A stretch of DNA of 19,056 nt from a virus (taxonomy: Duplodnaviria > Heunggongvirae > Uroviricota > Caudoviricetes), in IMG/VR virus record IMGVR_UViG_2713896899_000019, positions 1 to 19,056 of that record; one strand, given 5' to 3'. Made by a program: the position numbers and the translations under genes. How positions within the stretch are numbered: position 1 is the stretch's first letter; every line of letters starts with the position of its first letter. Below the pieces are notes generated by a model, which searched no databases, was not told the DNA's origin, and saw nothing but the letters and a program-made list of their open reading frames with translations. Positions 1,315-18,790 of the stretch are shown here, piece by piece.

Positions 1315-1369
1315 TGATACCTCCAGACGCCCAAGAGCGATACGAGCTTACATACTTCATGGCATTAAA

Positions 1370-1606
1370 TCACCCAGGTTGTTTGTTTTTCATTGAAGCG
1401 ACCCAGGCATCTATTGCTTTTCTGTTATACATACATTCACTGGAAGGCTTTGGATTACCGTCTGGTGATACGTGAATATACTCTCTTCCAACCATCCAGC
1501 ATTCTTTCCGGGCCCGAAGAATTGTGCCTGGTTTGAGCCCGGTAATTGCGATTAGAACGCTTTCACAAACCCATTCATTGGGAGCCAGTTGAATCACATT
1601 GCCCAT
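1370..1606 (-). CDS. xis: Excisionase-like small DNA-binding protein
   Basis: 78-aa ORF immediately upstream of int on the same strand. The ITGLKPGTILRARKECWMVGREY segment resembles excisionase-family proteins from recollection, and the position matches xis. Confidence 0.55.
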   Translation of the reverse strand: MGNVIQLAPNEWVCESVLIAITGLKPGTILRARKECWMVGREYIHVSPDGNPKPSSECMYNRKAIDAWVASMKNKQPG

Positions 1607-1614
1607 GCATTACC

Positions 1615-1761
1615 TCACACAACACTCAGCCCACGGCAGTGGCACCACACTTCAAACATTCGTTTCACAATTTCACGACAGTAGAAACCGTCAACATCTC
1701 GTGTCAGGTCATAGCGATTGCCGTAACGCTGGTGGACCCATCGTTCAAATGCTTTATTCAT
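1615..1761 (-). CDS. Small hypothetical protein (48 aa)
   Basis: Hand-translated as MNKAFERWVHQRYGNRYDLTRDVDGFYCREIVKRMFEVWCHCRGLSVV. AAGGAAG sits 7 nt upstream of the ATG. It fills the gap between the 80-aa gene stop (1765) and xis start (1606). It is below the ORF-track length cutoff. Confidence 0.3.
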   Translation of the reverse strand: MNKAFERWVHQRYGNRYDLTRDVDGFYCREIVKRMFEVWCHCRGLSVV

Positions 1762-1764
1762 TCT

Positions 1765-2007
1765 TTACTTCCTTTTCATGGCTCGTAATTTTTTCAGATG
1801 AGCTTCCTGCTCTGTTTCTGCCAGAATTTGTCGGTATTCCTGGTGATCGATCCGTTCAAACAGTTCATTAAAATCGTTTATTTTTACCGACTGTGTTCGC
1901 CCATCCATTCTTCTGTACAACACAGTGTTGTTTATGCAGCGAATAATTTTTATCGGGTAGCCAGCACTATCGGTGTATATCTGACCACGTTGAATCAGAG
2001 CGAACAT
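1765..2007 (-). CDS. Hypothetical phage protein (80 aa)
   Basis: ORF in operon orientation, tightly packed with its neighbours. Confidence 0.5.
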   Translation of the reverse strand: MFALIQRGQIYTDSAGYPIKIIRCINNTVLYRRMDGRTQSVKINDFNELFERIDHQEYRQILAETEQEAHLKKLRAMKRK

Positions 2008-2011
2008 TCCT

Positions 2012-2098
2012 TTATCCCCAGCGGAAAAGCGAATACAGAATAAATGCCACCGCTATTGCAACTCCTACTGCGGTGAATGCTTCAGGCCAATTCATCAT
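2012..2098 (-). CDS. Small hydrophobic peptide (28 aa), putative membrane micro-protein
   Basis: Hand-translated as MMNWPEAFTAVGVAIAVAFILYSLFRWG. Its ATG overlaps the stop of the upstream 151-aa gene (ATGA at 2095-2098). It fills the gap to the next gene exactly. Confidence 0.3.
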   Translation of the reverse strand: MMNWPEAFTAVGVAIAVAFILYSLFRWG

Positions 2099-2550
2099 TT
2101 CACCTCCACGCCGATCCCGGCAATAACACAATCCCGTTTAATAGCTTCTTTCACCCAGCGTTTATAGGTTGCCGGATGGAATTTTGCGTTTTTTCCGGTA
2201 CCGCTCCAGAATGCCTTTGATGTGATATCGGGCAGGGTGATAGTCAGGCCTTTCTTCTTGCTGCTTTCAGAACTTTTGCAAAAAGTTAATGCGTCGCGTA
2301 GTTCTTTAACGCACGCATAGTTTTCTGCTTTCTCTGGATCGCCGGTACGGTGTTCAGCTTCTTGTCTGCACCATTTGAGGACTTTCTCAGCGGCTGCGTG
2401 GAGACGCTGACGTTGCCAGTCGTATGTGTCGACCAGCCCATATGCGTGATCCTTTGCTTTGCTTAATTCAGCTACGAGGCATTCGGAATCAATCAGATTA
2501 TTTTCCGCAGCGGAAAGTGCTTGTTTCAGTCGCTCGATTTCTTCAGCCAT
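2095..2550 (-). CDS. Hypothetical phage protein (151 aa)
   Basis: ORF in operon orientation; no family recognised. Confidence 0.55.
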   Translation of the reverse strand: MAEEIERLKQALSAAENNLIDSECLVAELSKAKDHAYGLVDTYDWQRQRLHAAAEKVLKWCRQEAEHRTGDPEKAENYACVKELRDALTFCKSSESSKKKGLTITLPDITSKAFWSGTGKNAKFHPATYKRWVKEAIKRDCVIAGIGVEVK

Positions 2551-2732
2551 GTAATAGCCTGTTTTACTCTAGGTATCGACATCATCGTCACTCATATCCA
2601 GTTCCATCGACGCCATCAGAACGGCGTCGTGATAGTTCTGGCTACCGCAGGTGATTGTAACGGCGTAGGAGTCACTATTTTCTCGCTTATGGATAAGTAC
2701 AACTGGGTTTTTGATCTTGCCCACCCCGCACC

Positions 2733-2828
2733 TCAGTAATTCATTAAAAATTTATATTCAATCAGCGTACCGAAAACGACGGACGCCAGCAGCAGACTAA
2801 ACAGTATGGACAGGAGGAATGACTTCAT
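2733..2828 (-). CDS. Small hydrophobic peptide (31 aa), putative single-pass membrane protein
   Basis: Hand-translated as MKSFLLSILFSLLLASVVFGTLIEYKFLMNY. Its start overlaps the upstream stop as TGATG at 2826-2830. Confidence 0.3.
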   Translation of the reverse strand: MKSFLLSILFSLLLASVVFGTLIEYKFLMNY

Positions 2829-3049
2829 CACTTTGCCTCCCGCTGTACGATTTTGTAGGCGCGCAGGATGTCGCGTGTTTTTCCTGACAACGATGACTTA
2901 ACCCAGAAAAAGCCGCTGCGGTTTTCAGAGATCCCCTGTACATTAAACAGCACCGCATCAACAACGCGGTTATGCTTTTGCAATGTCAGGCAGGAACTGG
3001 TGATCACGATGTTCGCTACGGCGCCATAGTCCTGGTATTGGATTTTCAT
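2828..3049 (-). CDS. Hypothetical phage protein (73 aa)
   Basis: ORF with GGGGAA upstream of the ATG; its start directly abuts the stop of the 112-aa gene. Confidence 0.5.
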   Translation of the reverse strand: MKIQYQDYGAVANIVITSSCLTLQKHNRVVDAVLFNVQGISENRSGFFWVKSSLSGKTRDILRAYKIVQREAK

Positions 3050-3388
3050 TTACATGTTCCCCATAACGGTATCGCTCATGTCGTTGACCATGCTCTGCCA
3101 GATTTCTTTGCCGCTTTGCGTCAGCTCGTTTCCACGAACGCATTTGCTTAACAGTTGAATACCAACGGCTTCCCATTGGGGGTAATTTTCTTTGATAGCC
3201 TTCAGAGCATAACCATCGATTAAGTCCCTGATGCCTTTAACCCCACCGATGATGTTTACTCGTATGGATTGCCCATTGACATTAATCAGGAAATGACCAC
3301 CGCTGGTGGCGGATATGTGGTTGTGCAGTGCCGCCGCATACTGATTTGCCAGCGCATTGAGGCGGAAATTTTGTGTAATGAGTGACAT
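3050..3388 (-). CDS. Hypothetical phage protein (112 aa)
   Basis: ORF whose start overlaps the upstream stop as TAATG at 3386-3390. Confidence 0.55.
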   Translation of the reverse strand: MSLITQNFRLNALANQYAAALHNHISATSGGHFLINVNGQSIRVNIIGGVKGIRDLIDGYALKAIKENYPQWEAVGIQLLSKCVRGNELTQSGKEIWQSMVNDMSDTVMGNM

Positions 3389-4134
3389 TATTTACCCTCC
3401 CAACCAATCACCTGAAACAGCCCCATCTTCGGGTGATACCAGCGGGTACCACGTGGCTCTGCCTCTGACATCATCTGATGAAATGCTTTCATGAATGGCT
3501 CCAGCTCCACGATAGCCCGGCGCGAAAGAAGACCATCTGGTGTCATAAATTCGTGCGTATCGGTTGGGATGCTGTAGGCATTGACCAGATTGCGGCACTT
3601 AGCATCAGTCATTCCGCTTTTGGCGACCACCTGGCGATAACCGACATATCCGGCGCGCATATTTCCGCGTTTGATGGTTTCCACCGCTTCTGTGACTGTT
3701 TCGAGCTGTTCTTCCACATGATTCAGGCGCTTCTGTTGACGAACAGCGTCGGCGGCTATCGCAGCGATCATCTCGATTTCCGTTAGCGGTGTGCGAGTGC
3801 GGAAGTAGCTGTTAACCAGTTCGCGCTGAACCTGCCAGGCAAGGGCGTCATTGAATGGCTTCGTCAACATCAGGTAACCTGATTCAAAAAGTACAATCCC
3901 TGATGGTGCAAATTTAGAGAATGTTCCTTCCGGGAGGTCCGTACGTATTACGTCCGCACCTAATTCGGCATAATCCACACCGCTGATGAAATGCTCACGG
4001 TTTCGGTTGAATGCTGCACGCGCTGTTCCTTCCGGTCGCTGGTGGACTTCATCAATCATCGCCAGCGTCACAACACGCTGACCGCGATATTCGACTGCCG
4101 GAAGCTGTTTGTTATTGATCGTTACTATGTTCAT
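3388..4134 (-). CDS. ORF6N/KilA-N-like DNA-binding protein (antirepressor-like)
   Basis: 248 aa. N-terminus (…LAMIDEVHQRPEGTARAAFNRNREHFISGVDYAEL…) matches my recollection of the ORF6N domain seen in phage antirepressor-like proteins. No search was run. Confidence 0.55.
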   Translation of the reverse strand: MNIVTINNKQLPAVEYRGQRVVTLAMIDEVHQRPEGTARAAFNRNREHFISGVDYAELGADVIRTDLPEGTFSKFAPSGIVLFESGYLMLTKPFNDALAWQVQRELVNSYFRTRTPLTEIEMIAAIAADAVRQQKRLNHVEEQLETVTEAVETIKRGNMRAGYVGYRQVVAKSGMTDAKCRNLVNAYSIPTDTHEFMTPDGLLSRRAIVELEPFMKAFHQMMSEAEPRGTRWYHPKMGLFQVIGWEGK

Positions 4135-4145
4135 TTTCGTCCACC

Positions 4146-4724
4146 TCAGTGCATAACCGGCATGTCTGGCATACCGTCTTTCTGAATCAGTTCAATGAAG
4201 CTGTCATGTAGTATGTTGAGTCCCTCCCGGCCCATCGCTGACAGCCTGAATCCGCATTTCTCGTCAGTTACAACCATGTCCTGATACATACGCAGCGCCA
4301 TCTGCTGGCCAACGTCAGGCCCGTATTTTTCAATTGCGCCCGCCTCGATATGGTTAGCGAGCGCGAAGCGCTCAGACCATGGATAAATGCTGATTGAACC
4401 GGGTTTTCCTGTGTATACAACGGCTGTATCTACGCCGCCCTTGTCATTCTGAACATCGACAGTCCCGTTCTTCTCCTGCTCCTCAGCAATGAACACGGCG
4501 ACAACAAGCCAGCGCCATAGGATGATTTGTTTTTCAATACACGGCATAAACCAGCCGCTTTCAATCCCTTCCATAATGCAAGCTATCAGATCGAGCCCGT
4601 CCGGAATTCGTTTGTCATAGTTACCGTTGTCGATCTGGCGAACCGCAGTTGAATAACCAATAATTCGATTACCAAAACGGATGCCTGTTAATGTAGGTTC
4701 AGGGGTAATGGTTGAATTAATCAT
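4146..4724 (-). CDS. Hypothetical phage protein (192 aa)
   Basis: ORF track gives a TTG start at 4727; the adjacent ATG at 4724-4722 with AAGGAGAG about 6 nt upstream is the more likely start. Confidence 0.6.
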   Translation of the reverse strand: MINSTITPEPTLTGIRFGNRIIGYSTAVRQIDNGNYDKRIPDGLDLIACIMEGIESGWFMPCIEKQIILWRWLVVAVFIAEEQEKNGTVDVQNDKGGVDTAVVYTGKPGSISIYPWSERFALANHIEAGAIEKYGPDVGQQMALRMYQDMVVTDEKCGFRLSAMGREGLNILHDSFIELIQKDGMPDMPVMH

Positions 4725-4757
4725 CAATACTCTCCTTTTGGTTTGAAGGTTTATTGT

Positions 4758-4979
4758 TCATTTCCGGTCCTTAACTTTGCTGTATCGTTCATGGCTCATT
4801 ACTTCCCAGTTCTGGCCGCCGTCTCGGGACAGCAGCCGCCAGCGGCGATTAACCCTCAGACTCAGGTTTCCGGAGCCGTGCATACGACAGGGATGAATTC
4901 GTCTGGCTCTGAACTGGCGGAGAACACGGACCGCCTGCAGGTGCACCCACTCAGGAATTCGTATTGCTGTTAATGTCAC
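4758..4979 (-). CDS. Small arginine-rich protein (73 aa)
   Basis: GTG start preceded by GGAGG. High arginine content (…RVLRQFRARRIHPCRMHG…RVNRRWRLLSRDGG…). Overlaps the 3' end of the upstream 69-aa gene by 29 nt in another frame. Confidence 0.35.
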   Translation of the reverse strand: MTLTAIRIPEWVHLQAVRVLRQFRARRIHPCRMHGSGNLSLRVNRRWRLLSRDGGQNWEVMSHERYSKVKDRK

Positions 4980-5160
4980 CGATTTCCTCCAGATCAGGAG
5001 CGATTACCTGATATCCCGCTTTCTTTGCTATCCATAAGAAGGTATCCATGCTGGCAATCATCTCGTTATTGTGAACTTTACGGGTATTTATTACCTGACC
5101 ATTTTCAATCGTCATAATGATCTGTACTTTTTCGTGTATAAGAGGGGATAAATCAGACAT
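4951..5160 (-). CDS. Hypothetical phage protein (69 aa)
   Basis: Start overlaps the upstream stop as TGATG at 5158-5162. Confidence 0.45.
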   Translation of the reverse strand: MSDLSPLIHEKVQIIMTIENGQVINTRKVHNNEMIASMDTFLWIAKKAGYQVIAPDLEEIGDINSNTNS

Positions 5161-5519
5161 CAGTTAATTCCTCCACTGATATATTTCTCTTTTACGTAGT
5201 CAACAACCTCTTTTAAAAGGCCGTCCACTATCAGTTTCCCTGATTCAGTGAGATATTCCGTGTGTTGATTAATACCGATGGCATTCTGGTATGCGGTACG
5301 GATTGTTGCTTCTCCTTCCGTCCGTCCATATTCAACACGGGTAAGACCCTCAAATCGTAATAACAACTGGTTCATGAACTGTTCAGTTATTTCTATCGTT
5401 GTTATTTCTCCGTCCGGGAGGTCAACGACGAGCAGATTACTACCTGTTTTACGTTGCATCCGCCGGAGTGCCGCTGTTACCATGCGGCGACGATCTTTAT
5501 AAATGGTTGTACATGCCAT
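5160..5519 (-). CDS. Hypothetical phage protein (119 aa)
   Basis: ORF in operon orientation; no family recognised. Confidence 0.55.
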   Translation of the reverse strand: MACTTIYKDRRRMVTAALRRMQRKTGSNLLVVDLPDGEITTIEITEQFMNQLLLRFEGLTRVEYGRTEGEATIRTAYQNAIGINQHTEYLTESGKLIVDGLLKEVVDYVKEKYISGGIN

Positions 5520-5522
5520 TTG

Positions 5523-5621
5523 TTATTTCCCGTATGCTTTTCTGAGAAACAGTATTGCAACTGACCAGTATCCTGCATTAGCCATTAATAATGCGGTTTT
5601 ATAAGCGTTTCTATTTTTCAT
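5523..5621 (-). CDS. Small hydrophobic peptide (32 aa)
   Basis: Hand-translated as MKNRNAYKTALLMANAGYWSVAILFLRKAYGK. Stop lies 3 nt before the start of the 119-aa gene. Weak RBS. Confidence 0.25.
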   Translation of the reverse strand: MKNRNAYKTALLMANAGYWSVAILFLRKAYGK

Positions 5622-5703
5622 GCATCACCATTATTTTCTGGTTGTGGAAATCCACGACCAGAGGCCGTCATGTTTTTATGTGTGATTTTTTACTGAATGT
5701 TCT

Positions 5704-5895
5704 TTATTCGTTGCGTAGTGTTTCTATATACTCGTAAGCCATTTCACAGGTCTTATTCATGGAGCGAATGAGACAGCATAAATAATCGTCTGTCTCTCCT
5801 TGGTCGGGCGAATTCTTAAATATAAATTCAAGCATTGATGTATTCTCTTTTATTTGTGCCGCCACTTCCTCAAGAATATTTAATGGAGTTATCAT
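5704..5895 (-). CDS. Small acidic protein (63 aa)
   Basis: ORF in an AT-rich segment. Acidic composition (…EEVAAQIKE…DQGETDDY…EMAYEYIETLRNE). Start overlaps the upstream stop (5892-5895). Confidence 0.45.
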   Translation of the reverse strand: MITPLNILEEVAAQIKENTSMLEFIFKNSPDQGETDDYLCCLIRSMNKTCEMAYEYIETLRNE

Positions 5896-6116
5896 GTTCT
5901 TTGCTCCTTAAATGCATCGCATGCGCTTCTGGCGTATTGTTGTGCCAGTAAAAAGATATCATCCGAAAGTTCATCACATTCTTCATCACCGGAAGCCGAA
6001 ATGATTAACCCCGCTTCAAGCAGTACGGCAATGTGATGAAAAGCTGTCTCCGGTTCGTTGGTAAGGCCTTTGAACATTTTCATCTTATGCTTCCTCCTGA
6101 TTTTGTTTATAAGCAT
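5892..6116 (-). CDS. Small acidic protein (74 aa; start may be an internal Met)
   Basis: ORF in an AT-rich segment with an acidic stretch (…ASGDEECDELSDDIF…). Overlaps the 3' end of the 138-aa gene. Confidence 0.4.
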   Translation of the reverse strand: MLINKIRRKHKMKMFKGLTNEPETAFHHIAVLLEAGLIISASGDEECDELSDDIFLLAQQYARSACDAFKEQRT

Positions 6117-6501
6117 CAGTCAATAACAACATTGGATCACAGCCAAGAACATTAGCCAGAGGGATAAGCATGCTGATGGTTGGTTCGTACTCTCCGCTTT
6201 CCCACTGGATGATGATTTCTTCATCGAGGTCGAGCAGTCTGGCGAGTTCGGCTGTTGTTAAGCCGCAGTCTTCGCGTTGGGTACGAAGACGGTTGTTGAT
6301 TGCAGAATTTTTGTTCTGTAAAAGCATTGCTGACGATAGCTTTCTGGATATGCTATTTGTCATATCCCATGCCAGTCCTGCGCATGACTCTATATCGCTA
6401 GAGAGCGTAGCATCTGGTGTTGCTTTTGCTATTAGTGTAATGAGGCTGCCGAGGTTTTTCAGTTCTTCGAGACAGTCAAGAGTTGTAGCTTTATTGATCA
6501 T
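6085..6501 (-). CDS. HTH (XRE-type) domain protein with an unrecognised N-terminal domain; first gene of the leftward early operon
   Basis: 138 aa. C-terminal segment GLTTAELARLLDLDEEIIIQWESGEYEPTISMLIPLANVLGCDP is a typical XRE-family helix-turn-helix. It sits directly downstream of the putative OL/PL. Confidence 0.55.
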   Translation of the reverse strand: MINKATTLDCLEELKNLGSLITLIAKATPDATLSSDIESCAGLAWDMTNSISRKLSSAMLLQNKNSAINNRLRTQREDCGLTTAELARLLDLDEEIIIQWESGEYEPTISMLIPLANVLGCDPMLLLTDAYKQNQEEA

Positions 6502-6604
6502 GAGATGATACCTCAGTTACGAACTTTGCTTCATGGTAACTAAGGTATCAAGGTGTGGCAAGTGATTTTTGATACTTTGGTTTCTTTTTGTGTTTTGTGT
6601 CTGG
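6502..6604 (-). promoter_or_regulatory. Putative OL/PL region (leftward early promoter and operator)
   Basis: Candidate minus-strand promoter: -35 TTGCCA (plus 6556-6561), 17-nt spacer, -10 TACCAT (plus 6533-6538). The 12-mer TTGATACTTTGG (6569-6580) is identical to the 12-mer at the PR -35 (7308-7319). GATAC/GTATC pentamers occur at 6507, 6545 and 6571. Confidence 0.35.
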
Positions 6605-7261
6605 TCAGAAAATATCCCACCTGGCATCAACCACAACACCTACTATTTCGCAATCATTGTCCATTTCTATGATTGGATATTGTGGATTAAGGGGCTTTAG
6701 AAACGCCTTTCCCATTTCAGAAATATATTTTTTGAATGTTGCTTCATTGGTAGATTTTTTTCTGGCGATGACGTAACACCCTGAAAAAACTTCTTTATCT
6801 GGGTTGACAAGGATCGACATTCCTTCAGGAAATGTTATTCCTACGGGCGAAGTCATTGAGTCTCCGTGCACTTCCAGCCAGAACCCCCTCTCTCCAGCGT
6901 ATTTTACAGAATGCCTCCAATTATCCTGATCATACATGTTGTAGTCATCACCAGCAGTTGCGAATAATCCTGCCTGAACCCAGTTAATTACAGGGTAAGA
7001 GTGTGCTGTGTCTCTCTGTGGGCAGCTCTTAACATTATTTTCCCAATGCTTATCTTTTTCATCTCCGTTCTGAAGCCACTGCGGTGAACACTGCAGTGCA
7101 GCTGCGACTTTAAAAAGGGTGTCACCGTTGAAACTTTTTGTAAGGCCTTGCTCGGCTTTACTGATTGCAACTCTGGTGACCCCTGCTTTTTTAGCCAACG
7201 CATCTTGCGTTAACCCAGCTTTTTGTCGTGCGTTGATGAGGCGTTCACCTAAAGATTTCAT
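6605..7261 (-). CDS. cI: CI-like prophage repressor (HTH-XRE N-terminal domain, LexA/S24-like C-terminal autopeptidase domain)
   Basis: The ORF track extends to 7336, but the in-frame ATG at 7261-7259 (MKSLGERLINARQKAGLTQDALAKKAGVTRVAISKAEQG…) is preceded by AAGGAGA. The C-terminus has GDSM and a downstream lysine, as in S24 peptidases. It is divergent from the cro-like gene. Confidence 0.85.
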   Translation of the reverse strand: MKSLGERLINARQKAGLTQDALAKKAGVTRVAISKAEQGLTKSFNGDTLFKVAAALQCSPQWLQNGDEKDKHWENNVKSCPQRDTAHSYPVINWVQAGLFATAGDDYNMYDQDNWRHSVKYAGERGFWLEVHGDSMTSPVGITFPEGMSILVNPDKEVFSGCYVIARKKSTNEATFKKYISEMGKAFLKPLNPQYPIIEMDNDCEIVGVVVDARWDIF

Positions 7262-7372
7262 TTTTCTTCTCCTTTCATGGCTGCTGATACTAAAGTAACA
7301 GAATTTCTTGATACTTTGGATTCTCGCGTTTAACATTCTTGGATAACAGAGTATCCGGTGTGAGGCTAAAGA
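7262..7372. promoter_or_regulatory. Immunity-region control region (putative OR with PR rightward and PRM leftward)
   Basis: Rightward promoter: -35 TTGATA (7308-7313), 17-nt spacer, -10 TAACAT (7331-7336), about 37 nt upstream of the cro-like ATG. GATAC-containing motifs at 7286 and 7310, and the palindrome GGATAacagagTATCC at 7341-7356. A leftward -10-like TAGTAT lies upstream of cI. Confidence 0.45.
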
Positions 7373-7624
7373 ATGACCCTTTATGAAATATTAAAAACTC
7401 AATTTAAGACCAATGCCGCTATTGGCCGTAGGTTCCCAAAGAAAGGAAGGCCTCGTGGTAGTCAGGGAGTTGGAAAGTGGAAAACACGGGGCGTTCCGGA
7501 GGATGTTGCCATTCTCTGCCATCTGGATCCGAACATTCCATATACACATCCAAGCTTAGCGCGCACGGGAGAGGTGAAGGGCTTGTATGTCCCAGAATTA
7601 CGTTCAGACAGAGATGCCATCTAG
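7373..7624 (+). CDS. cro: Cro-like small DNA-binding regulator
   Basis: 83-aa ORF divergent from cI, with GAGG 8 nt upstream of the ATG. The cro call rests on position and size; no motif was aligned. Confidence 0.55.
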   Translation: MTLYEILKTQFKTNAAIGRRFPKKGRPRGSQGVGKWKTRGVPEDVAILCHLDPNIPYTHPSLARTGEVKGLYVPELRSDRDAI

Positions 7625-7880
7625 GTACTGCCAGGCAGACGAAGAGTGGATTCAGCAGCAGTTACAGGGGCTGCCTCCGTCACTGAGACGGAAGGTCGCC
7701 CTGAAATATGCGGAGGTATACGAAATCACTTTTGACGCTGAGCCTGTTTCATTCCGCAAGGAGAACAGAGCAAGGCACGAAGCAAACACAAGGCTCCGCT
7801 TGTTTGTGAGAAATCAGGGCAGAGCTTTACAGGGGTATACAACTCAGCCGCCCCTGGCAGGAACGCAATCGCGCTCCTGA
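7587..7880 (+). CDS. Hypothetical protein in the cII position (97 aa; start uncertain, alternative ATG at 7614)
   Basis: ORF immediately after cro, overlapping its 3' end. No family recognised. Confidence 0.4.
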   Translation: MSQNYVQTEMPSRYCQADEEWIQQQLQGLPPSLRRKVALKYAEVYEITFDAEPVSFRKENRARHEANTRLRLFVRNQGRALQGYTTQPPLAGTQSRS

Positions 7881-7936
7881 TTGGTACCGGGCTTAAAGGT
7901 GTCCGGTGGCTGAATCCCAAATCTCATTGCATTTGT

Positions 7937-8112
7937 GTACTAGCTAAGGAGTACATGCAAAATTCAGTGAGAGGAGGGGAGGGGGAGGAGTGCTCGTGTG
8001 TTAGTGCGAAGCACTGGAACAGGCTTTTCCAACAGACGGGTACATAGGTTAGGTAGATCTCGATCTAAAGGGGGATACCTCTGAAAAAACGGCTGTACCA
8101 TAAAGCTAGTAC
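7937..8112. repeat. Inverted-repeat-bracketed non-coding element (19-bp arms) containing a polypurine G-rich tract
   Basis: Left arm GTACTAGCT-aagga-GTACA (7937-7955); right arm TGTAC-cataa-AGCTAGTAC (8094-8112), whose reverse complement is GTACTAGCT-ttatg-GTACA. Inside are a 22-nt pure-purine tract (7969-7990, GGGGAGGGGGAGG core) and an AGTGCT…AGCACT hairpin (7989-8015). Confidence 0.5.
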
Positions 8113-8129
8113 AAAATGGATAAAAAAGT

Positions 8130-8498
8130 ATGAGTGAAGACCTGAAGCAAAATTTAATCGCTCTCCTGGAAGAGCAATTCATTCGCTCCGATGACAAAGT
8201 CGTTTTCGATTATGTGATGCAGAAAAAAATCAAGTCTCAGGGATACCATCTGCAACGCAATTTCAGCATCAGCATTAGCGGTGGTCGTAAAGGGTTTATT
8301 GATTGCCTGGTTACATCATCAGACGGCCAGCAGTGTGCCATTGAGGTCGATAAGAAGTCTCCCCGCAACCGTTCGTTGATGAAGCTGGCTCAGCTACCTG
8401 AGGGGATGTCAGGCTTTGTCCTGCTCAGGGATGGTAAGCACCCTCTTCGATATAGCGAGAACGGAATTGACGTTATTCGTGCGACGAAATTTAAGTGA
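8130..8498 (+). CDS. Small PD-(D/E)xK-like nuclease-fold protein (possibly VRR-NUC-like)
   Basis: 122-aa ORF. The segment GGRKGFIDCLVTSSDGQQCAIEVDKK resembles a restriction-endonuclease-fold core (hydrophobic strand ending in D, then E-x-D/K-K). Weak RBS. It sits just upstream of the replication genes. Confidence 0.4.
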   Translation: MSEDLKQNLIALLEEQFIRSDDKVVFDYVMQKKIKSQGYHLQRNFSISISGGRKGFIDCLVTSSDGQQCAIEVDKKSPRNRSLMKLAQLPEGMSGFVLLRDGKHPLRYSENGIDVIRATKFK

Positions 8499-8609
8499 GT
8501 TGATTCGGAAAGGGGCTGGCAGCCTTTGGGGAGACCACCAGCCATGTGAGGAGGAATCCATGAAAACCACATCACAAAATTATTATCTCATCACTGCGGG
8601 GACAGCACA

Positions 8610-10268
8610 ATGCAGCTGACAATCACGCCGAATTTTGCACAGGAGCGAGCGCTAAACATGTTGCGCCGTGACTGGAAGGCAAACGACACCTTCATGGTTT
8701 ACTCGCCAACAGGTAGCGGTAAAACGGGTCTGGCAGCCTTCATCGTTGCTGGTTTTGTCAGCCGTGGTATGCGTGTTCTGTTCTGTGTTCCGTACACCAT
8801 CCTGATTGGTCAGACGGCTAATCGGTTCGTGCAGTATGGTTTACCTGGAGATGAAATCGGTTATATCTGGGCGGATCACCCGAACTACGATCCGGACCGG
8901 AAAATTCAGATTGCCAGCGCTGACACGCTTATTCGTCGTGTTTTTCCTGAAAATATCGATCTGCTGATTATCGACGAAGCGCACCTGCGTAAAAAACGCA
9001 TCCTGAAGGATATCGAACGTCTGCGCGGCAAAGGCGTAAAGGTGATTGGCCTGTCGGGTACTCCGTTTTCTCCGTTCCTGGGCAAATACTATGACCGACT
9101 GATTAAGCCGACCACCATCGGCGAGTTAATCCAGCGTGGCGATCTGAGTAAATACGAATTTTACGCGCCAACTAAGCCGGATCTGAAAGGTGTTAAAACC
9201 ACATCTTCGCTTGAGTACGGCCGCGATTACAACGAAACACAGCTGGCTGAAATCATGTGCGGCTCTACGCTGGTGGGCGACATCGTACAGAACTGGCTGG
9301 AGAATGGTCGGGATCTACCTACCATCGCTTTCTGCGTCAACGTAGCCCACGCCAATTACCTGACAATCCAGTTTAACCTCGCAGGTGTTAACGCTGAGGT
9401 AATGACCGCAGACACTCCGGTAGATGAGCGCCAGACCATCATTCACCGCTTTGAAACTGGTGCAACGAAAATCATCGTTAGTGTGGGCGTTCTGGTGGCC
9501 GGCTTTGATAGTGACGTTCGTTGCATCATCTACGCCAGGCCAACAAAAAGCGAAATTCGCTGGTTGCAGGCACTCGGGCGTGGGCTGCGCACCGCACCGG
9601 GTAAAGAGTCCTGCCTTATCTTCGATCACAGCGGCACCGTGCACCGTTTGGGTTATCCGGATTCAATCGAGTACGACGATCTTCCCGGTAAGTCTGACGG
9701 CATGGAGGAAAGCGCGCGCCGCGCAGTTGAGGAACGGGCCGAAAAACTGCCACATGAATGCCCTCAATGCCACTACATGAAGCCAGCTGGCGTCTATGTT
9801 TGCCCTAAATGTGGACACAAGCCGCTGCGAGGTGAAGATGTTGATACTGACACTAGCCGCAAACTTAATAAGCTGGGTAAAAATCAGCATCAGTCGACGA
9901 AGACAGAGAAACAGTCCTGGTGGAGTCAGATCAAATTTTATCAGCGCCAGCGTGCTTCGCTGGGGCGTCCAGTCAGTGATGGATGGTGTGCTCACACTTT
10001 CAGGGAGAAATTCGGTGAATGGCCTGATGGGTTGAGCAGTTTCCCGATGGAAATAAGCCCAGAAGTAAGTAACTACATCAAACACAAGCTGATTCGGTTT
10101 GCCAAAGGCCGTCAGCGGACGCAGAGAACTATAGAAAAATTGCAGGCAACGATTCCTCTGTCTCAGGAACGAGGTGAGCGAAGCGAGATGCCAATAGGCA
10201 CTGAGGCTTGGCGCATCATGCAAGCAAAGCAACAACTCCAGAAAAATATAAACAGTTTGAGTCAGTAA
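8610..10268 (+). CDS. Replicative SF2 (DEAD/DEAH-box) helicase with C-terminal zinc ribbon
   Basis: 552 aa. Walker A SPTGSGKT, DEAH box LLIIDEAH, motif VI QALGRGLR, and zinc ribbon CPQCHYMKPAGVYVCPKCGH. Confidence 0.85.
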   Translation: MQLTITPNFAQERALNMLRRDWKANDTFMVYSPTGSGKTGLAAFIVAGFVSRGMRVLFCVPYTILIGQTANRFVQYGLPGDEIGYIWADHPNYDPDRKIQIASADTLIRRVFPENIDLLIIDEAHLRKKRILKDIERLRGKGVKVIGLSGTPFSPFLGKYYDRLIKPTTIGELIQRGDLSKYEFYAPTKPDLKGVKTTSSLEYGRDYNETQLAEIMCGSTLVGDIVQNWLENGRDLPTIAFCVNVAHANYLTIQFNLAGVNAEVMTADTPVDERQTIIHRFETGATKIIVSVGVLVAGFDSDVRCIIYARPTKSEIRWLQALGRGLRTAPGKESCLIFDHSGTVHRLGYPDSIEYDDLPGKSDGMEESARRAVEERAEKLPHECPQCHYMKPAGVYVCPKCGHKPLRGEDVDTDTSRKLNKLGKNQHQSTKTEKQSWWSQIKFYQRQRASLGRPVSDGWCAHTFREKFGEWPDGLSSFPMEISPEVSNYIKHKLIRFAKGRQRTQRTIEKLQATIPLSQERGERSEMPIGTEAWRIMQAKQQLQKNINSLSQ

Positions 10269-10269
10269 G

Positions 10270-11238
10270 ATGAAAACAGCAGCTGCAGCGAAAGGCCGCT
10301 GGCCTGAAATATTAGAGCACTTCGGCTTGCCGCCGATAACAGGAAAAAATCACTTCAAGGGTGAATGCCCGGTATGCGGTGCACGTGGCAAGTTCCGAAT
10401 TGATGACCGCGACGGTGCAGGAACGTGGATCTGTGTATGTGGTAGTGGCGATGGTATGAAACTTGTCACCCTGACACAGGCGAAGCCATTTAACGAGATT
10501 TGTACCGAAATAGACCGCCTGATCGGTAATGATTACCAACGGGTTAAAATCCCGGTAACCAGCAGCGCCACCAGCTTACGCAAACGGGTATTGAGCAAGT
10601 TTTCAAAACTGGAGGCACTGCGTGGTACATCCGGCGCAGCGTATCTTAATTCTCGTGGAATATTCAGTCTTCCTGCTGAGGCGATCCGGTTCAATGCCAG
10701 GCAGAGACACAACGGGAGTGTGTTCCAGTCTCTTTATTCACTTGCTACGGACGATAAAGGGGAGTTGTGCTATCTGCACCAGACTCTGCTTGATGGTGAT
10801 AAAAAAGCAGATATCGGTAGCAGTGCAAAGCGCCTCAAATCCCTGCAGGAAGATAACTATTTGGATCACGCTCGTTCTGTAGCTATCCGCATGTTTCCTG
10901 TTGCTAGCACTCTGGGTATCGCCGAAGGCATCGAAACAGCGCTGTCAGCGCACCAGATTTATAACGTGAACACTTGGGCAACCATTAACAGCGGCTTTAT
11001 GAAAAAGTTCCGCGTACCAGCTGGTGTTCTGCACCTGATTATTTTTGCCGACCGTGACGAGAACAGCGCCACCGGGCTGGCTGCGGCTTGCGAATGTGCT
11101 CATGCCAATCTGATGGCAAAGAATGACCTGCAGCGCGTGAGCGTGTACTGGCCGGATCACGATGATTTCAACAATATGCTCATGAACGGTGATCAGGTTC
11201 GAGAGCTGGTTTTCCATAAGAAAAAGGCGGTTGCGTAA
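10270..11238 (+). CDS. DNA primase (zinc-binding N-terminus plus Toprim domain)
   Basis: 322 aa. Cys cluster GECPVCGARGKF…WICVCGSGDG; Toprim-like acidic motifs GIAEGIETALS and LIIFADRDEN. Start is 2 nt after the helicase stop. Confidence 0.8.
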   Translation: MKTAAAAKGRWPEILEHFGLPPITGKNHFKGECPVCGARGKFRIDDRDGAGTWICVCGSGDGMKLVTLTQAKPFNEICTEIDRLIGNDYQRVKIPVTSSATSLRKRVLSKFSKLEALRGTSGAAYLNSRGIFSLPAEAIRFNARQRHNGSVFQSLYSLATDDKGELCYLHQTLLDGDKKADIGSSAKRLKSLQEDNYLDHARSVAIRMFPVASTLGIAEGIETALSAHQIYNVNTWATINSGFMKKFRVPAGVLHLIIFADRDENSATGLAAACECAHANLMAKNDLQRVSVYWPDHDDFNNMLMNGDQVRELVFHKKKAVA

Positions 11239-12095
11239 TGCGTACTGATAACAACGAACATAAAGCACTATTCACCATCCCGACGGCAGCGTACAGCTCC
11301 GCCCTCGCAAACATCAAGCCCCTGCCAGAGCAACGGAGAATCACCGGGCATAAGCAGACTGATGCTTATCTTTGGGTGCTGGAGGTTATCCGTCTGAACG
11401 AACCCGCACATCTGGATGCTGCTGAGGCTGCGCTGGTGAAAATTAAAATTTCCCCAAAAGAGGCCCAGGAACGCTATTCGCGTTATCTGCTGGCGAATGG
11501 TGGTGATCCTTTCCAGATTGCTTTCGGTACCATCGGCATGGATAACCCGGCACAGGCAATCAGGATCGCCCGGGAGAATATCAAAAAAGCAACATCAGTC
11601 AGGGCTACGTTTGGTAGCTATGAAGCAGCACTCGAAGATGTGGAAGCCGAGCGAGTGATCAAGTCTTCCCAGAAATTTATCGACGATCATCTCTGGGGCT
11701 GGACTGCAGCCGAGAAGACAGCGGGCAGAATTGATGGCATCCGTATGAATGAAATTGATGATCAGCGTCGTGCATATGTTGATGGCTATCGTGATGTACT
11801 GCCAGAGCCTCATACATTGTCAGACGTAGTTCGTGAGTTTGTTTACTGGGACTGGCTCTACAGTGTTCGCCACACTGCGTCTAAAGAACAGGGCGATGAG
11901 TATGGTTACTCTGAGCATCACGAATCGGTATATGACCGCGAGCGCTACCTTGAAAAATTGCTGATGACCATCAAACCGGTGACACGGGCTGAAGCCGTGG
12001 AGGTGTGTCGTTGGTTTTTGGCAAGCGGAAAGGGCGAATATATGAAAGACAATGGCGCGGCTGTTATTCTTAATCTGGTTGGGGAGTGTGAATAA
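11238..12095 (+). CDS. Hypothetical phage protein (285 aa) in the nin-region position
   Basis: ORF coupled to its neighbours by TAATG overlaps at both ends; no family recognised. Confidence 0.6.
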   Translation: MRTDNNEHKALFTIPTAAYSSALANIKPLPEQRRITGHKQTDAYLWVLEVIRLNEPAHLDAAEAALVKIKISPKEAQERYSRYLLANGGDPFQIAFGTIGMDNPAQAIRIARENIKKATSVRATFGSYEAALEDVEAERVIKSSQKFIDDHLWGWTAAEKTAGRIDGIRMNEIDDQRRAYVDGYRDVLPEPHTLSDVVREFVYWDWLYSVRHTASKEQGDEYGYSEHHESVYDRERYLEKLLMTIKPVTRAEAVEVCRWFLASGKGEYMKDNGAAVILNLVGECE

Positions 12096-12925
12096 TGAAG
12101 CTTGAGGCATCGCTAAAATACTTCAGTCCTCAGGGAATGTATATCGGCGACGATGTGAAAGGAACCTCTCCGGAACGTCTTACAGGCACCGATGTTATGG
12201 CGGCTATTGGTACCACCAGCAATCGTGAGCGGTTTGGCTTGGCGGCCTTCTTCGGGAAGGCCGGTATCAGCAAGACTGATGAGCAGATGGCAGTCCAAGC
12301 GCTGGCGCGTCACGCGATGGAAATTGCACCGAAGAATGTGCGTAAAGCAGCTGGTGGTGAATTTGGCTGGTGTATGCTGGTACTGGCGCAGTTTGCTTTT
12401 GCTGAGTATTCCCGATCGGCAGACACCAGCGTAACATGCCATAGTTGCAGTGGTACCGGACTAACACCCCGTAAGCAGGTCATTCGTAAGGTTTCATACC
12501 CATGGGGTAAAGCACCATATTGGGCCAGTCGCTCCCGTGCTGTTCGACCGTCAGACTGGGAGAAATGGACAGAGGTAACGGAAGTTGTACCAGTCGTTTG
12601 CGATGTATGTAAAGGGAAGGGAGTGATAAGTGCCAGGTGTCGTTGTGGTGGAAAGGGGGAGGTACTCGACCGCAAAGCTACAAGCGAGCGTGGTGCACCA
12701 GTGTTTAAAATCTGCGAACGTTGCAGCGGAAATGGATTTTCCACGGTACCGTCTACCACAGTATATAAAGTTGTACTGAAGCGGATACCCGAGCTACATG
12801 TCAGGACATGGACGCGTAATTGGAAGCCGTTTCTTGATTCTCTGGTTGACATTTGCCACCAGGAAGAGCGTAAGGCCGATATTGCTTTTCAGAATGTGAC
12901 AAGTTTTGGTGATGATGTGAACTAA
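12095..12925 (+). CDS. Putative late-gene antiterminator Q-like protein with four CxxCxGxG zinc-finger repeats
   Basis: 276 aa. Sits directly upstream of the candidate late promoter/terminator and lysis genes. Repeats CHSCSGTG, CDVCKGKG, CRCGGKG and CERCSGNG are DnaJ-type zinc-finger spacing. The Q call is from position plus zinc-binding character, not an alignment. Confidence 0.5.
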   Translation: MKLEASLKYFSPQGMYIGDDVKGTSPERLTGTDVMAAIGTTSNRERFGLAAFFGKAGISKTDEQMAVQALARHAMEIAPKNVRKAAGGEFGWCMLVLAQFAFAEYSRSADTSVTCHSCSGTGLTPRKQVIRKVSYPWGKAPYWASRSRAVRPSDWEKWTEVTEVVPVVCDVCKGKGVISARCRCGGKGEVLDRKATSERGAPVFKICERCSGNGFSTVPSTTVYKVVLKRIPELHVRTWTRNWKPFLDSLVDICHQEERKADIAFQNVTSFGDDVN

Positions 12926-12950
12926 GCTTAGGGTTTTTGCGACATTACAC

Positions 12951-12999
12951 TTGATTTTGTCCGAATCTGTCATGTATGCTTTTAAGCATGTGGAATAAT
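12951..12999 (+). promoter_or_regulatory. Candidate late promoter PR' with promoter-proximal -10-like pause element (qut-like region)
   Basis: -35 TTGATT (12951-12956), 18-nt spacer, -10 TATGCT (12975-12980). A -10-like AATAAT lies at 12994-12999 in the initial transcribed region, as in sigma70-dependent pause sites used by Q proteins. Confidence 0.4.
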
Positions 13000-13018
13000 G
13001 CGTAAATGATTTTGATAG

Positions 13019-13041
13019 AAGCCCCTTTCGGGGCTTTTATC
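13019..13041 (+). terminator. Intrinsic terminator (candidate tR', ending a short 6S-like leader RNA)
   Basis: Stem AAGCCCC / GGGGCTT with loop TTTC (13019-13036), followed by TTTTATCATTT. The T-tract is on the plus strand only. It overlaps the stop codon of the minus-strand 310-aa gene. Confidence 0.6.
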
Positions 13042-13972
13042 ATTTCAGCCCTTTTAAAAAGCGTTCGAAATTATGGAATTCAAGTTCATCCGCTGTCGAT
13101 GAGTATTTTATTTTGTTTGCGATGGGACGCAGATTTTTTTTAGTTAGGAATTTACTGGCTTCATGTTTCAGTTTTTTTAATCGCTTGATTCGTTCTTCGA
13201 TTGAACTGGCAATTTTGGCAACATTAGAAATTTCTGGGCTTGGGGCTGTTTGTAGATCAATACACTGAATTTTTTTTAGATCTTCTTTGAGCGCAACAAA
13301 AAAATCACGAAGATTGTTTTCTGGTAAAAGAACATGACTAAATGATACTTTTCCTATGTAGAATTCACTTATTGCCTCTCCAGACTCGCGCATGTGTTCA
13401 TTCATTGCGAACAGAATTGTTTTGGTATTCTTATCAGTTTCCACTTCAGAAAGGGTTACAAGGCCTGTCTGGCTCTTGGTCAAAAAACGAATTTCTGTAG
13501 CACCAAGTCTTCCGGAGTAATTGGAATTTTTACTATTTTCGATGGTAGAAGATAGATAATCTATTGTGGGTTTGATATTTCGTATCGTTTCAATATTTTT
13601 TTGCCACTCTTCACATTTACTTTTTGCGGTGCTAATAATTTCCCGATTGGTTTCGAGTTGCATAAATTTATTGAAACTAAGAACGTTTTCACCAAATTCC
13701 ACACCAAATTCGTTTTTACCACATTTATTTCCGATGTTGGTTTCAATGCCACTAGATGTTTTTACAATATAACCCATTTGATGTGGTTGGTTGCAACCAG
13801 TTAGACCACAGTGGATTTCTTCTTTAAATTTGTAGTAACCAATTATCTCCTCAAGTTGTTGAACTCCTTTGTCTATAGTGGTGACAAAGTTTGGTCTGGA
13901 TATAATTTCCTCCCAGTTTTCAAGTTTCTCGATGCCGTTTTCAGTTCTGAGAAAAATCATGAATCGCTCCAT
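13040..13972 (-). CDS. AT-rich hypothetical protein (310 aa; likely start at the ATG at 13960), moron oriented against late transcription
   Basis: Long ORF rich in K/N/I/E. Hand counts of two 60-nt lines give about 32-33% G+C against about 50% in flanking phage genes. GGAG lies 8 nt upstream of the internal ATG at 13960. No family recognised. Confidence 0.6.
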   Translation of the reverse strand: MERFMIFLRTENGIEKLENWEEIISRPNFVTTIDKGVQQLEEIIGYYKFKEEIHCGLTGCNQPHQMGYIVKTSSGIETNIGNKCGKNEFGVEFGENVLSFNKFMQLETNREIISTAKSKCEEWQKNIETIRNIKPTIDYLSSTIENSKNSNYSGRLGATEIRFLTKSQTGLVTLSEVETDKNTKTILFAMNEHMRESGEAISEFYIGKVSFSHVLLPENNLRDFFVALKEDLKKIQCIDLQTAPSPEISNVAKIASSIEERIKRLKKLKHEASKFLTKKNLRPIANKIKYSSTADELEFHNFERFLKGLK

Positions 13973-14074
13973 TTGAAAGTGGACCGTTTATTTTATCGGC
14001 ATAAAAATGAGAACACCACAAGTTATTTTATTACCGAATACTTGGTAAAGATGGGTAACTTCGCCACACAGCTT

Positions 14075-14098
14075 AAACCCGCCGCCGTGCGGTTTTTT
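14075..14098 (+). terminator. Possible weak intrinsic terminator
   Basis: Short GC stem CCGC/GCGG (14079-14092) followed by TTTTTT (14093-14098). The stem is only about 4 bp, so this is tentative. Confidence 0.3.
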
Positions 14099-14369
14099 GT
14101 CTGCACAACAGGTAAGAGCATTCTCCCTTATGGGGCTTGGCTTAAATGCACTGAGTGCTCTTATCGTTGTGCTGAATTAAGCGAATACCGGAAGCAGAAC
14201 CGGATCACCAAATGCGTACAGGCGTCATCGCCGCCCAGCAACAGCACAACCCAAACTGAGCCGTAGCCACTGGCTGTCCTGAATTCATCAGTGATAGTTA
14301 CGCTGCGGCCTTCTTTTCCCCATTCCCAATATAAGAACTACGCAATCCGTTACTTGCGGAGGCGTTGCT

Positions 14370-14585
14370 ATGAAATCCATGGACAAAATTTCAACGGGCA
14401 TTGCCTACGGCACCTCCGCAGGCAGTGCTGGCTACTGGTTTTTACAGTGGCTTGATCAGGTCAGTCCGTCACAGTGGGCTGCGATTGGTGTACTGGGGAG
14501 TCTGGTTCTGGGCTTCCTGACTTATCTGACAAATCTGTACTTCAAAATCAGAGAAGACAAGCGTAAGGCTGCACGGGGAGAGTAA
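14370..14585 (+). CDS. S: Class II holin, phage 21 S21-like pinholin (dual start Met1/Met4)
   Basis: 71 aa, [71 protein letters not shown]. Two transmembrane segments and a charged C-terminus; closely matches my recollection of S21. Confidence 0.85.
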
Positions 14586-14589
14586 TTCA

Positions 14590-14940
14590 ATGACTCAAAA
14601 CTATGAACTGATTGTGAAAGGGATCCGCAATTTTGAGAATAAAGTTACGGTAACTTTAGCGTTACGGGACAAAAAACGCTTTGACGGTGAAATTTTTGAC
14701 CTGGACATCTCGCTGGACCGTGTTGAAGGTGCCGCGCTGGAGTTTTATGAGGCAGCAGCCAGAAGGGGCATCAGACAGGTCTTCCTGGATGTTGCTGCCG
14801 GGTTATGTGAAGGGGATGAGCAGTCGCCGGAAAAGCGCCCCGTAATTTTAGATGCGCAGAATGTGTGGATAACCCACAAAGGAAAGCTACCAGGAAGAAT
14901 TACTGGTTCTCTGAAGACTCCTCCAGAATCACAACCTTAA
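14590..14940 (+). CDS. Hypothetical protein (116 aa) lying between holin and endolysin
   Basis: ORF with GGAGAG upstream of the ATG, starting 4 nt after the holin stop. No family recognised. Confidence 0.5.
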   Translation: MTQNYELIVKGIRNFENKVTVTLALRDKKRFDGEIFDLDISLDRVEGAALEFYEAAARRGIRQVFLDVAAGLCEGDEQSPEKRPVILDAQNVWITHKGKLPGRITGSLKTPPESQP

Positions 14941-15003
14941 GTCACTGACCGGAACAGATAAACCTGTCCGTGGGCAGAAACCGATAAATCCTGATAAATA
15001 TCC

Positions 15004-15537
15004 ATGAACGCAAAAATCAGATACGGCCTGTCGGCTGCCGTTCTGGCACTGATTGCCGTCGGTGCGCCCGCTCCTGATATTCTCGACCAGTTTCTGGATG
15101 AAAAAGAAGGTAACCACACAACGGCATACCGCGATGGGTCCGGCATCTGGACCATCTGTCGGGGTGCCACGATGGTGGATGGAAAACCCGTTTTTCCCGG
15201 TATGAAACTGTCGAAGGAAAAATGCGACCAGGTCAACGCCATTGAGCGTGATAAGGCGCTGGCATGGGTGGAGCGCAATATTAAAGTACCACTGACCGAA
15301 CCACAAAAAGCGGGTATCGCGTCATTTTGTCCCTATAACATTGGCCCCGGTAAGTGTTTTCCGTCGACGTTTTATAAGCGACTGAATGCCGGTGATCGTA
15401 AAGGTGCATGCGAGGCGATTCGCTGGTGGATAAAAGATGGTGGGCGCGATTGCCGCATACGTTCAAATAACTGCTATGGACAGGTTATTCGTCGTGACCA
15501 GGAAAGCGCATTAGCCTGTTGGGGGATAGATCAGTGA
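15004..15537 (+). CDS. R: SAR endolysin (lysozyme, T4-lysozyme-like fold, R21-type)
   Basis: 177 aa. N-terminal signal-anchor-release segment [22 protein letters not shown], then the catalytic-region pattern [20 protein letters not shown]. Confidence 0.85.
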
Positions 15538-15998: not shown

Positions 15999-16040
15999 CC
16001 TTTTTATCGTGGTAAACATTTCGCAGGGTATGAGGTATTT

Positions 16041-18779: not shown

Positions 18780-18790
18780 CCGAGGACATT

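Follow-up and report, generated by a model that had tools for sequence, protein, structure and literature searches.

The window analyzed here (the whole 19,056-nucleotide stretch; IMG/VR record IMGVR_UViG_2713896899_000019, positions 1 to 19,056) is a lambdoid prophage, and upstream of its helicase and primase genes lies a non-coding element of ~176 bp (7937–8112) in which a central core is bracketed by two inverted arms. In sequence terms the arms are very probably sites of the TrpR type, and in sister phages the same two slots are filled by tandem repeats that match the met-boxes of MetJ. From the sequence match, conservation pattern, arm swaps, and genomic context obtained here, we infer actual TrpR binding, the direction of its effect, and an origin role for the core, but with unequal confidence: it is probable, though less so than the match itself, that the host TrpR binds the arms in vivo; the chances are evenly balanced that TrpR operators here bracket a cis-acting control region of the helicase–primase module; and the proposal that the core is a replication origin is more tentative, falling somewhat short of an even chance.

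The left arm, GTACTAGCTAAGGAGTACA, lies at 7937–7955 and the right arm, TGTACCATAAAGCTAGTAC, at 8094–8112; the reverse complement of the latter is GTACTAGCTTTATGGTACA, and the two arms have GTACTAGCT-N5-GTACA in common, i.e., 14 of 19 positions. A repeat search extended the outer inverted repeat to 13 nucleotides (nt) at 92% (7933–7945 with 8104–8116). Each arm also has a dyad of its own, GTAC-N10-GTAC, which occurs exactly twice in the window, once in each arm, against 0.07 expected occurrences, and only one of 200 shuffled sequences reached two. The 19-bp inverted arms that had been described in an earlier sequence-only reading of this DNA are therefore confirmed and are not a product of chance.

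That reading had also raised the possibility of paired binding sites for a regulator, which is supported by the identity of the dyads. The pattern GTACT-N8-AGTAC is that of the Escherichia coli TrpR operator; all 10 of its specified bases are present in the 18-bp, strand-neutral dyad of the left arm (GTACTAGCTAAGGAGTAC, 7937–7954) and nine of the 10 in that of the right arm (GTACCATAAAGCTAGTAC, 8095–8112), and when up to one mismatch was allowed, the two arms were the only matches in the window (0.20 expected). For comparison, K-12 operators were taken directly from the MG1655 genome, namely those of trp (GTACTAGTTAACTAGTTC), trpR (GTACTCTTTAGCGAGTAC), mtr (GTACCAGTACACGAGTAC), and aroH (GTACTAGAGAACTAGTGC). 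Scored against the idealised site GTACTAGTTAACTAGTAC, the left arm agrees at 15 and the right arm at 13 of 18 positions, the natural operators at 14–17. The arms share with the operators of trpEDCBA, trpR, aroH, mtr, and aroL the same 18-bp dyad, GNACT...AGTNC half-sites, conserved outer bases, and a free center, but they do not precede a tryptophan gene and are paired ~150 bp apart around a prophage core. TrpR binds its 18-bp operator only together with L-tryptophan (PMC7518442).

Relatives of the element and its surroundings were collected by scanning viral contigs, E. coli genomes, plasmids, and metagenomes for sequence patterns and by looking up distant homologues of a 97-amino-acid (aa) protein encoded just upstream; more than 100 distinct versions were obtained, from E. 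coli, Salmonella, Klebsiella, Citrobacter, Enterobacter, Kosakonia, Trabulsiella, and Yokenella (loci are designated below by L numbers). A scan of species-representative genomes gave only three chance matches, in unrelated metagenome-assembled genomes. Across relatives the arm consensus is GTACyAG-N4-CTrGTAC. When 54 distinct left arms were compared, and likewise 60 on the right, conservation of ~90–100% was seen at the outer bases (G1 T2 A3 and G15/G16-T-A-C18); the three positions next to these are degenerate in part, and the four to six in the center vary freely. L034 has a left arm that agrees with the trp operator at 17 of 18 positions. Over 146 related loci (1.42 Mb), 173 sites agreeing at nine or more of the 10 specified bases fall at the two arm positions, compared with 17 elsewhere. 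The slots themselves keep their places relative to the core, at about −80 to −93 and +64 to +71, in all clades.

The pattern of degeneracy within the arms is informative about what recognizes them. At the dyad pair formed by positions 5 and 14, the combinations TA, TG, CA, and CG were found 29, 21, 19, and 1 times, respectively, showing that the half-sites degenerate independently, and no compensation was seen either between the left and right arms or within an arm. Because half-sites vary independently and pairs are uncompensated, the arms are best understood as a symmetric protein-binding site and not as an RNA or DNA helix; arms acting as an RNA stem or as hairpins were accordingly rejected. 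Arms acting as CI or Cro operators were likewise rejected, since the cI–cro intergenic regions of three immunity types contain no arm-like sequence and since E. coli phage phi467 and L043 have the same cro but different arms.

Relative to phi467 and the window, loci L043, L044, and L155 have the same cro, 97-aa proteins that are 98–100% identical, primases that are 99% identical, and helicases that are 94–95% identical, and yet both arms are replaced by tandem 8-bp repeats, e.g., AGACGTCT-ATATGTCT and GGACGCCT-AGACGTCC. These score 12–14 of 16 against (AGACGTCT)2 in three consecutive 8-bp registers on each side; on the same met-box measure, the genuine K-12 metJ/B, metF, and metA operators (again from MG1655) score 11–12. 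Within the 7-kb loci of the L043 type, met-box matches occur at the arms only, and no 16-mer in the window reaches 12 of 16. MetJ needs at least two 8-bp boxes side by side (PMC3228920), and the sister loci have two to seven tandem AGACGTCT-like boxes in strict 8-bp register. Compared with the MetJ operators of metA, metBJ, metF, and others, the boxes of the sister loci thus score as high as or higher than those of K-12, but they are found only in relatives of the window and in a non-metabolic context.

Substitution may also affect one slot at a time. In L115, L147, and L151, an array of seven tandem 8-mers fills the left slot and a TrpR-type arm the right one, and L077 is similarly mixed; MetJ-type arms are thus present on the left only in these four loci and on both sides in L043, L044, L155, L059, L063, and L205. 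When 103 distinct modules were classified, 88 were TrpR/TrpR, six were MetJ/MetJ, and nine were mixed or unassigned, the last including one scored as MetJ-left/TrpR-right and three with near-threshold met-box arrays on the left. A metagenome scan yielded 12 true members among 120 matches, 11 of the TrpR type and one of the MetJ type, with no third type of operator. Two loci, L144 and L161, have at the right-arm position (~+55 to +95 from the core) a sequence that is neither TrpR- nor MetJ-type, CTGCACTGTCGTTTGGTTTGCAGGGCAAACC; with its inverted repeat GGTTTGC/GCAAACC, it may represent either a site of a third kind or an arm that has decayed.

Since two matches to host operators occupy the same slots with no matching change in a phage protein, host repressors are the simplest binding candidates. 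Binding of the arms by the 97-aa protein, the helicase, or the primase was rejected, as these are 94–100% identical across the swap in arm type. No homologue of TrpR or MetJ was detected by tblastn in 1.6 Mb of related phage DNA, nor a Trp_repressor domain (Pfam) among the early genes of the window. A competing reading is that of a phage-encoded dimeric regulator with TrpR-like specificity that binds the arms and either autoregulates the downstream gene or marks an origin. Many phage regulators do bind 16–18-bp palindromes, the right arm ends 17 nt upstream of the ATG of a 122-aa gene, and in L043 and L044 the arm type switches along with that gene, which gives way to one encoding a NUMOD4 protein. 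However, the gene in question is optional, and TrpR-type arms persist where there is no gene at all between the module and the helicase (L042, L081, L084, and L085); a second match, to the unusual tandem 8-bp architecture of MetJ sites, would be an unlikely coincidence; and both the constancy of the 97-aa protein, helicase, and primase and the lack of a similar site between cI and cro speak against a phage product. We therefore regard a phage-encoded regulator as improbable. The sequence-only reading had placed the right arm in the promoter and ribosome-binding region of the 122-aa gene, and as to position this is correct, but it is the gene that is optional and not the arm.

Host repressors might also be bound to no local effect. 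The arms could serve in trans as decoys, titrating scarce TrpR or MetJ while phage genomes accumulate by the hundreds, so that host synthesis and uptake of tryptophan or of methionine and S-adenosylmethionine (SAM) would be derepressed to the benefit of phage protein production; their position would then be inherited and not functional. That multicopy trpO operators cause derepression is established. The sites are near consensus and equal to or better than chromosomal operators, as many as seven tandem met-boxes exceed the need of a single promoter, and the arms have no overlapping promoter, all points in favor of decoys. A pure decoy could, however, sit anywhere, whereas the arms occupy two fixed flanking positions in all clades, and a new type of repressor site fills those same slots, in mixed modules one at a time. 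Titration is thus, in our judgment, also an improbable explanation, and TrpR-type operators acting locally on the core are preferred.

The core between the arms is conserved in its own right. In an alignment with four phages, its central ~100 nt are nearly invariant although the flanking genes are only ~75% identical. The 22-nt all-purine tract noted in the sequence-only reading is indeed present on the plus strand at 7969–7990 (GAGAGGAGGGGAGGGGGAGGAG), with GGGG at 7976–7979 and GGGGG at 7981–7985, as is the accompanying small hairpin, (T)AGTGC-GAA-GCACT(G), at 8002–8016 on the same strand. They are followed by a strand-neutral conserved box, GGAACAGGCTTTTCCAACAGACGGGTACATAGGTTAGGTAGATCTCGATCT, at 8016–8066, within which GATC occurs at 8056–8059 and 8062–8065, and by an A-run at 8084–8089 (plus strand), stopping 5 nt short of the right arm and present in most relatives. 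Paired G-runs (two runs of at least four G, 1–4 nt apart) were found in 91 of 92 distinct cores, and GATC in the box is kept in 89 of the 92. Over the 75 nt to the left of TTTTCCA, the upper strand is G-rich and C-poor (means of 46% G and 9% C); a canonical G-quadruplex motif is present on the upper strand of 53 of the 92 cores and on the lower strand of none. In the family as a whole, the box takes the form GGAAyAGG..CTTTTCCA...CCATnGGTTAGGTAG..GATCT over ~50 bp. The small hairpin appears in relatives as GCGC-GAA-GCGC or CCGC-GGA-GCGG, with full compensation, and several clades are without it. In modules whose left arm is of the MetJ type, an upstream C-run or CCUCA is able to pair with the first G-run, e.g., CCCCC-N11-GGGGG (L043 3440–3495; just left of the G-runs in L115, L151, L144, and L059), and this is absent from TrpR-type modules.

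The lengths of the G-runs vary by slippage between close relatives (e.g., G6TAAG7, G7TAAG7, and G8TAAG7), and because these differences shift every reading frame, there is no conserved open reading frame (ORF) over the element, in agreement with the sequence-only reading, which had found none of convincing quality. A 30-codon ORF, MQNSVRGGEGEECSCVSAKHWNRLFQQTGT (7955–8047), was rejected: its start codon is absent from phi467, which is 98% identical in this region, and its frame is not conserved. A Shine–Dalgarno-like AAGGAG does lie inside the left arm, 3 nt before the start of this ORF, but the ORF is probably fortuitous. A mini-ORF from a GTG after the purine tract was rejected too, as it is not conserved even in phi467.

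Nor does the core behave as a structured RNA. The rival in which it forms a cis-acting structure on the pR transcript (a put/nut-like antitermination element, a processing site, or a small-RNA precursor), with the arms closing a domain of ~170 nt, can draw on a single-sequence fold that is better than those of shuffled sequences (z = −3.9; both strands outdo their shuffles), on compensated changes in the stem of the GAA-loop hairpin, and on a covarying hairpin at 7886–7907 whose G.U pairs are those of the plus strand. That hairpin, however, lies outside the bracketed element. RNAalifold predicted no pairs over 42 diverse cores, the arm pairings are uncompensated, and the MetJ-type arms are tandem direct repeats that are not complementary. 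An Rfam search of 7000–9000 at E ≤ 10 returned only a chance match resembling a small nucleolar RNA inside the 122-aa gene, and a scan of the element gave neither a promoter nor a terminator that could delimit a discrete RNA. The structured-RNA reading is consequently given very little weight, and the small-RNA locus suggested in the sequence-only reading falls on the same evidence. Because of the empty consensus fold, the negative Rfam search, and the lack of a promoter or terminator, the core is conserved as primary sequence, which suggests that conserved proteins recognize it as DNA or else as a nucleic acid lacking structure.

An origin is our best guess for the function of such a core, given that its position is fixed, that it is conserved at the level of sequence, and that no other site offers itself as a candidate. 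With plentiful tryptophan, TrpR and its corepressor would occupy both sides of the core, of which the ~50-bp invariant box would be the origin or the site of helicase–primase loading. The G-run tract, which is compatible with R-loop formation, would be prone to form an R-loop or G-quadruplex on the strand transcribed from pR, and pR transcription across the G-runs could open the core via an R-loop. Occupancy of the arms might then determine either whether pR transcription continues into the genes for helicase and primase or whether the core is accessible, and phage replication would be coupled to the amino-acid status of the host. In sister phages the same coupling would run through MetJ and SAM, by way of met-box arrays in one or both slots. 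A more general proposal, that a widespread family of enterobacterial temperate phages has a modular two-slot origin or leader in which corepressor-bound TrpR or MetJ, on operators in any combination, licenses or vetoes a transcription-dependent origin of the R-loop type served by a superfamily 2 (SF2) helicase and a primase, seems to us rather unlikely; if it were true, replication would be wired to the two costliest metabolites derived from amino acids.

Several points weigh against TrpR operators controlling a replication core. Chromosomal TrpR and MetJ operators overlap promoters, whereas the phage arms do not: neither a scan nor manual inspection of both strands revealed a sigma-70 promoter overlapping either arm, and in the interval 7300–8700 the sole sigma-70-like match was at 7308–7336. 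TrpR dissociates fast and would be a weak roadblock to transcription. Almost every distance between 145 and 158 bp, and in one case 165 bp, is found from arm to arm, and a rigid phased DNA loop between the arms was rejected on this account. The core contains neither an AT-rich unwinding element (its GC content is 0.39–0.52) nor a DnaA box, and its sequence shows no clear iterons. Repressors that act when amino acids are plentiful would moreover shut replication off in good conditions, unless their binding were needed for the function of the core. Finally, when Salmonella LT2 grows on tomato roots, the trp regulon and many genes of prophage Fels-1, including STM0899 and STM0900, rise together (PMC7527575); these are the only expression data that were found, and the pattern looks like general prophage induction, which would not discriminate between the possibilities.

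Full-text literature searches turned up no description of sites for TrpR or MetJ in the replication regions of prophages, but the arrangement has partial parallels. Temperate phages are known to place operators of the host LexA repressor in their regulatory regions, examples being tum of coliphage 186, CTXphi, and GIL01, and the arms may likewise exploit the operator of a global host repressor to read physiology. The signal would be amino-acid sufficiency (Trp and SAM) and not DNA damage; the sites are paired and flank a core, in place of a promoter site; and the type of repressor is interchangeable. In the cer site of ColE1, at which Xer recombination takes place, ArgR and PepA have accessory sites, so that there, as perhaps here, an amino-acid repressor of the host assists a mobile element beside a cis-acting site, in an accessory or architectural capacity and not by repressing a promoter. 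The present element differs in having no Xer-like core and in adjoining a helicase and a primase, not a recombinase. Inspection of the sequence by eye gave no Xer/cer-like core, no site for integration host factor, and no antisense unit resembling lambda oop.

Origins primed by R-loops at G-runs are known from ColE1 RNA II, phage T4 oriF and oriG, and mitochondrial CSB II. The resemblance suggested by the core is one of clustered G-runs on the non-template strand of a transcribed but untranslated stretch near replication functions, with an SF2 helicase related to RadD; it differs from these origins in that no RNase H/Pol I processing site or primosome assembly site was identified. The pri-rep-ori regions of the Staphylococcus aureus pathogenicity islands (SaPI) and phage-inducible chromosomal islands (PICI) seem comparable in placing primase and helicase genes beside a non-coding central region flanked by repeats. 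In SaPIs, however, the repeats are iterons to which the island's own Rep helicase binds and with which it covaries, whereas the flanking sites described here match host repressors and show no covariation with the helicase.

Phages are known to read the DNA damage of their host via LexA, and also quorum and arbitrium signals; a link from an amino-acid repressor to a phage replication module appears to be undescribed. Co-option of a host repressor by a phage is thus not new in itself, and what would be unusual, to judge from the sequences compared, is that two slots are interchangeable between host repressors. If TrpR and MetJ do bind, nutrition would be sensed in this way by a large group of prophages of E. 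coli, Salmonella (Fels-1), Klebsiella, Citrobacter, and Enterobacter, the two regulons would reach into mobile DNA, and the family would provide a natural case of a cis-acting core around which sensor slots can be swapped. For a common and unstudied helicase–primase replication module, the region most likely to be the origin is, in addition, now delimited.

The element also has a fixed genomic context. This region of the window is 98% identical to phi467, 85% identical to Salmonella Fels-1, and ~75% identical to two Klebsiella phages. The bracketed element is the center of a non-coding module of ~330 bp that starts at ~7884, immediately past the stop codon that closes the 97-aa gene (7587–7880, plus strand; PHROG 852), a gene that is constantly 5′ of the module. 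In all relatives examined, a non-coding stretch of 250–370 bp separates a 94–98-aa gene from the helicase–primase pair, and at each locus inspected, across at least eight genera of enterobacteria, the module directly precedes helicase and primase. On the plus strand the order of its parts is one or two hairpins after the stop codon, the left arm, the purine- and G-rich tract, a GNA-loop hairpin in some clades, the ~50-bp conserved box, the A-run, and the right arm. In a 37-kb relative, helicase and primase are the sole replication genes, and no other non-coding gap of the early region is as large as the module.

This constancy bears on the suggestion in the sequence-only reading that the element might be a miniature inverted-repeat transposable element, or the remnant of one. 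Terminal inverted repeats, a length of ~176 bp, and the lack of coding capacity are admittedly those of such elements. The arm core, however, occurs nowhere else in the window; one or two copies per genome were found in 57 of 5,426 E. coli genomes, with a single copy per prophage, and every copy examined is in the same prophage context. The flanks prolong the inverted repeat (TTTGT...ACAAA) and contain no direct duplication of a target site, and the interior is more conserved than the neighboring genes. We reject a transposable element on these grounds.

Upstream of the module, the window contains a cI-like repressor gene (6605–7336, minus strand) and a gene in the cro position (7373–7624). 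A perfect palindrome, GGATAACAGAGTATCC, at 7341–7356 in the cI–cro intergenic region is likely the immunity operator. A weaker look-alike, GGATAAAAAAGTATGA, at 8118–8133 overlaps the start codon of the 122-aa gene and forms with GGATAACAGAGTATCC a 15-nt direct repeat at 87%; allowing two mismatches, the GGATAACAGAGTATCC pattern occurs 11 times in the window against 5.7 expected, and five of 200 shuffles reached 11, a marginal enrichment.

Downstream, the gene between the module and the helicase is variable: the slot may contain the 122-aa gene (window 8130–8498, plus strand; PHROG 1347), a NUMOD4 endonuclease-like gene, a 230-aa gene, or nothing, and it spans 3614–4235 in L043, 3591–4224 in L044, and 3125–3817 in L083. 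The 122-aa protein matched no family, Pfam included, and no sequence in the PDB. In E. coli the NUMOD4 version accompanies MetJ-type arms, which is consistent with co-conversion of flanking sequence. The slot is followed on the plus strand by the SF2 helicase gene (8610–10268), with ResIII and Helicase_C domains and E. coli RadD as its closest solved relative; by the primase gene (10270–11238), with Zn-ribbon, DUF7146, and Toprim domains; and then by a 285-aa gene and antiterminator Q.

The stop codon of the 97-aa gene is followed at 6 nt by the covarying hairpin mentioned above, ACCGGGC-TTAAAGGT-GTCCGGT (7886–7907, plus strand). In a comparison of 51 distinct instances, pairing was seen in 85.5% of cells, against 24–44% when the partners were slid, and 63 cells had changed on both sides; the loop, CUUAAAGGUG, is invariant. 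Its stem has frequent G.U pairs, which become mismatches if read on the minus strand, and it occurs in two tandem copies in L081, L083, L084, L085, and others. Its features suggest a hairpin that a protein recognizes on the pR transcript, perhaps in the manner of a nut site; no second copy of its loop was found in the leftward operon, nor was a conserved boxA. A candidate partner is the conserved Arg-rich helix (...RKENRARHEANTRLRLFV...) in the C-terminal half of the 97-aa protein. That half (EPVSFRKENRARHEANTRLRLFV...ALQGYTTQPPLAG) is conserved with the module, whereas the N-terminal half is variable and changes with the immunity region, and this mosaicism places a recombination boundary inside the gene. 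The AlphaFold model of the 97-aa protein has three helices and is of low confidence (mean predicted local distance difference test, pLDDT, 63); it had no fold match, and the protein had no match in Pfam, NCBIfam, or PDB sequences.

Two further observations concern the genomes in which the module resides. Klebsiella pneumoniae "plasmids" of 37–42 kb in PLSDB (NZ_CP076549.1, NZ_CP095237.1, NZ_AP024758.1, and others; L173) are complete phage genomes of this family, spanning integrase to terminase and tail genes, and presumably represent excised or induced phage DNA that was assembled as separate replicons. In L018 (~6410–6480), the element breaks off right after GCACTGGAA and is fused to a 1409-aa late-gene ORF; the junction is a large deletion in a defective prophage, with its endpoint inside the element just past the G-tract and the small hairpin.

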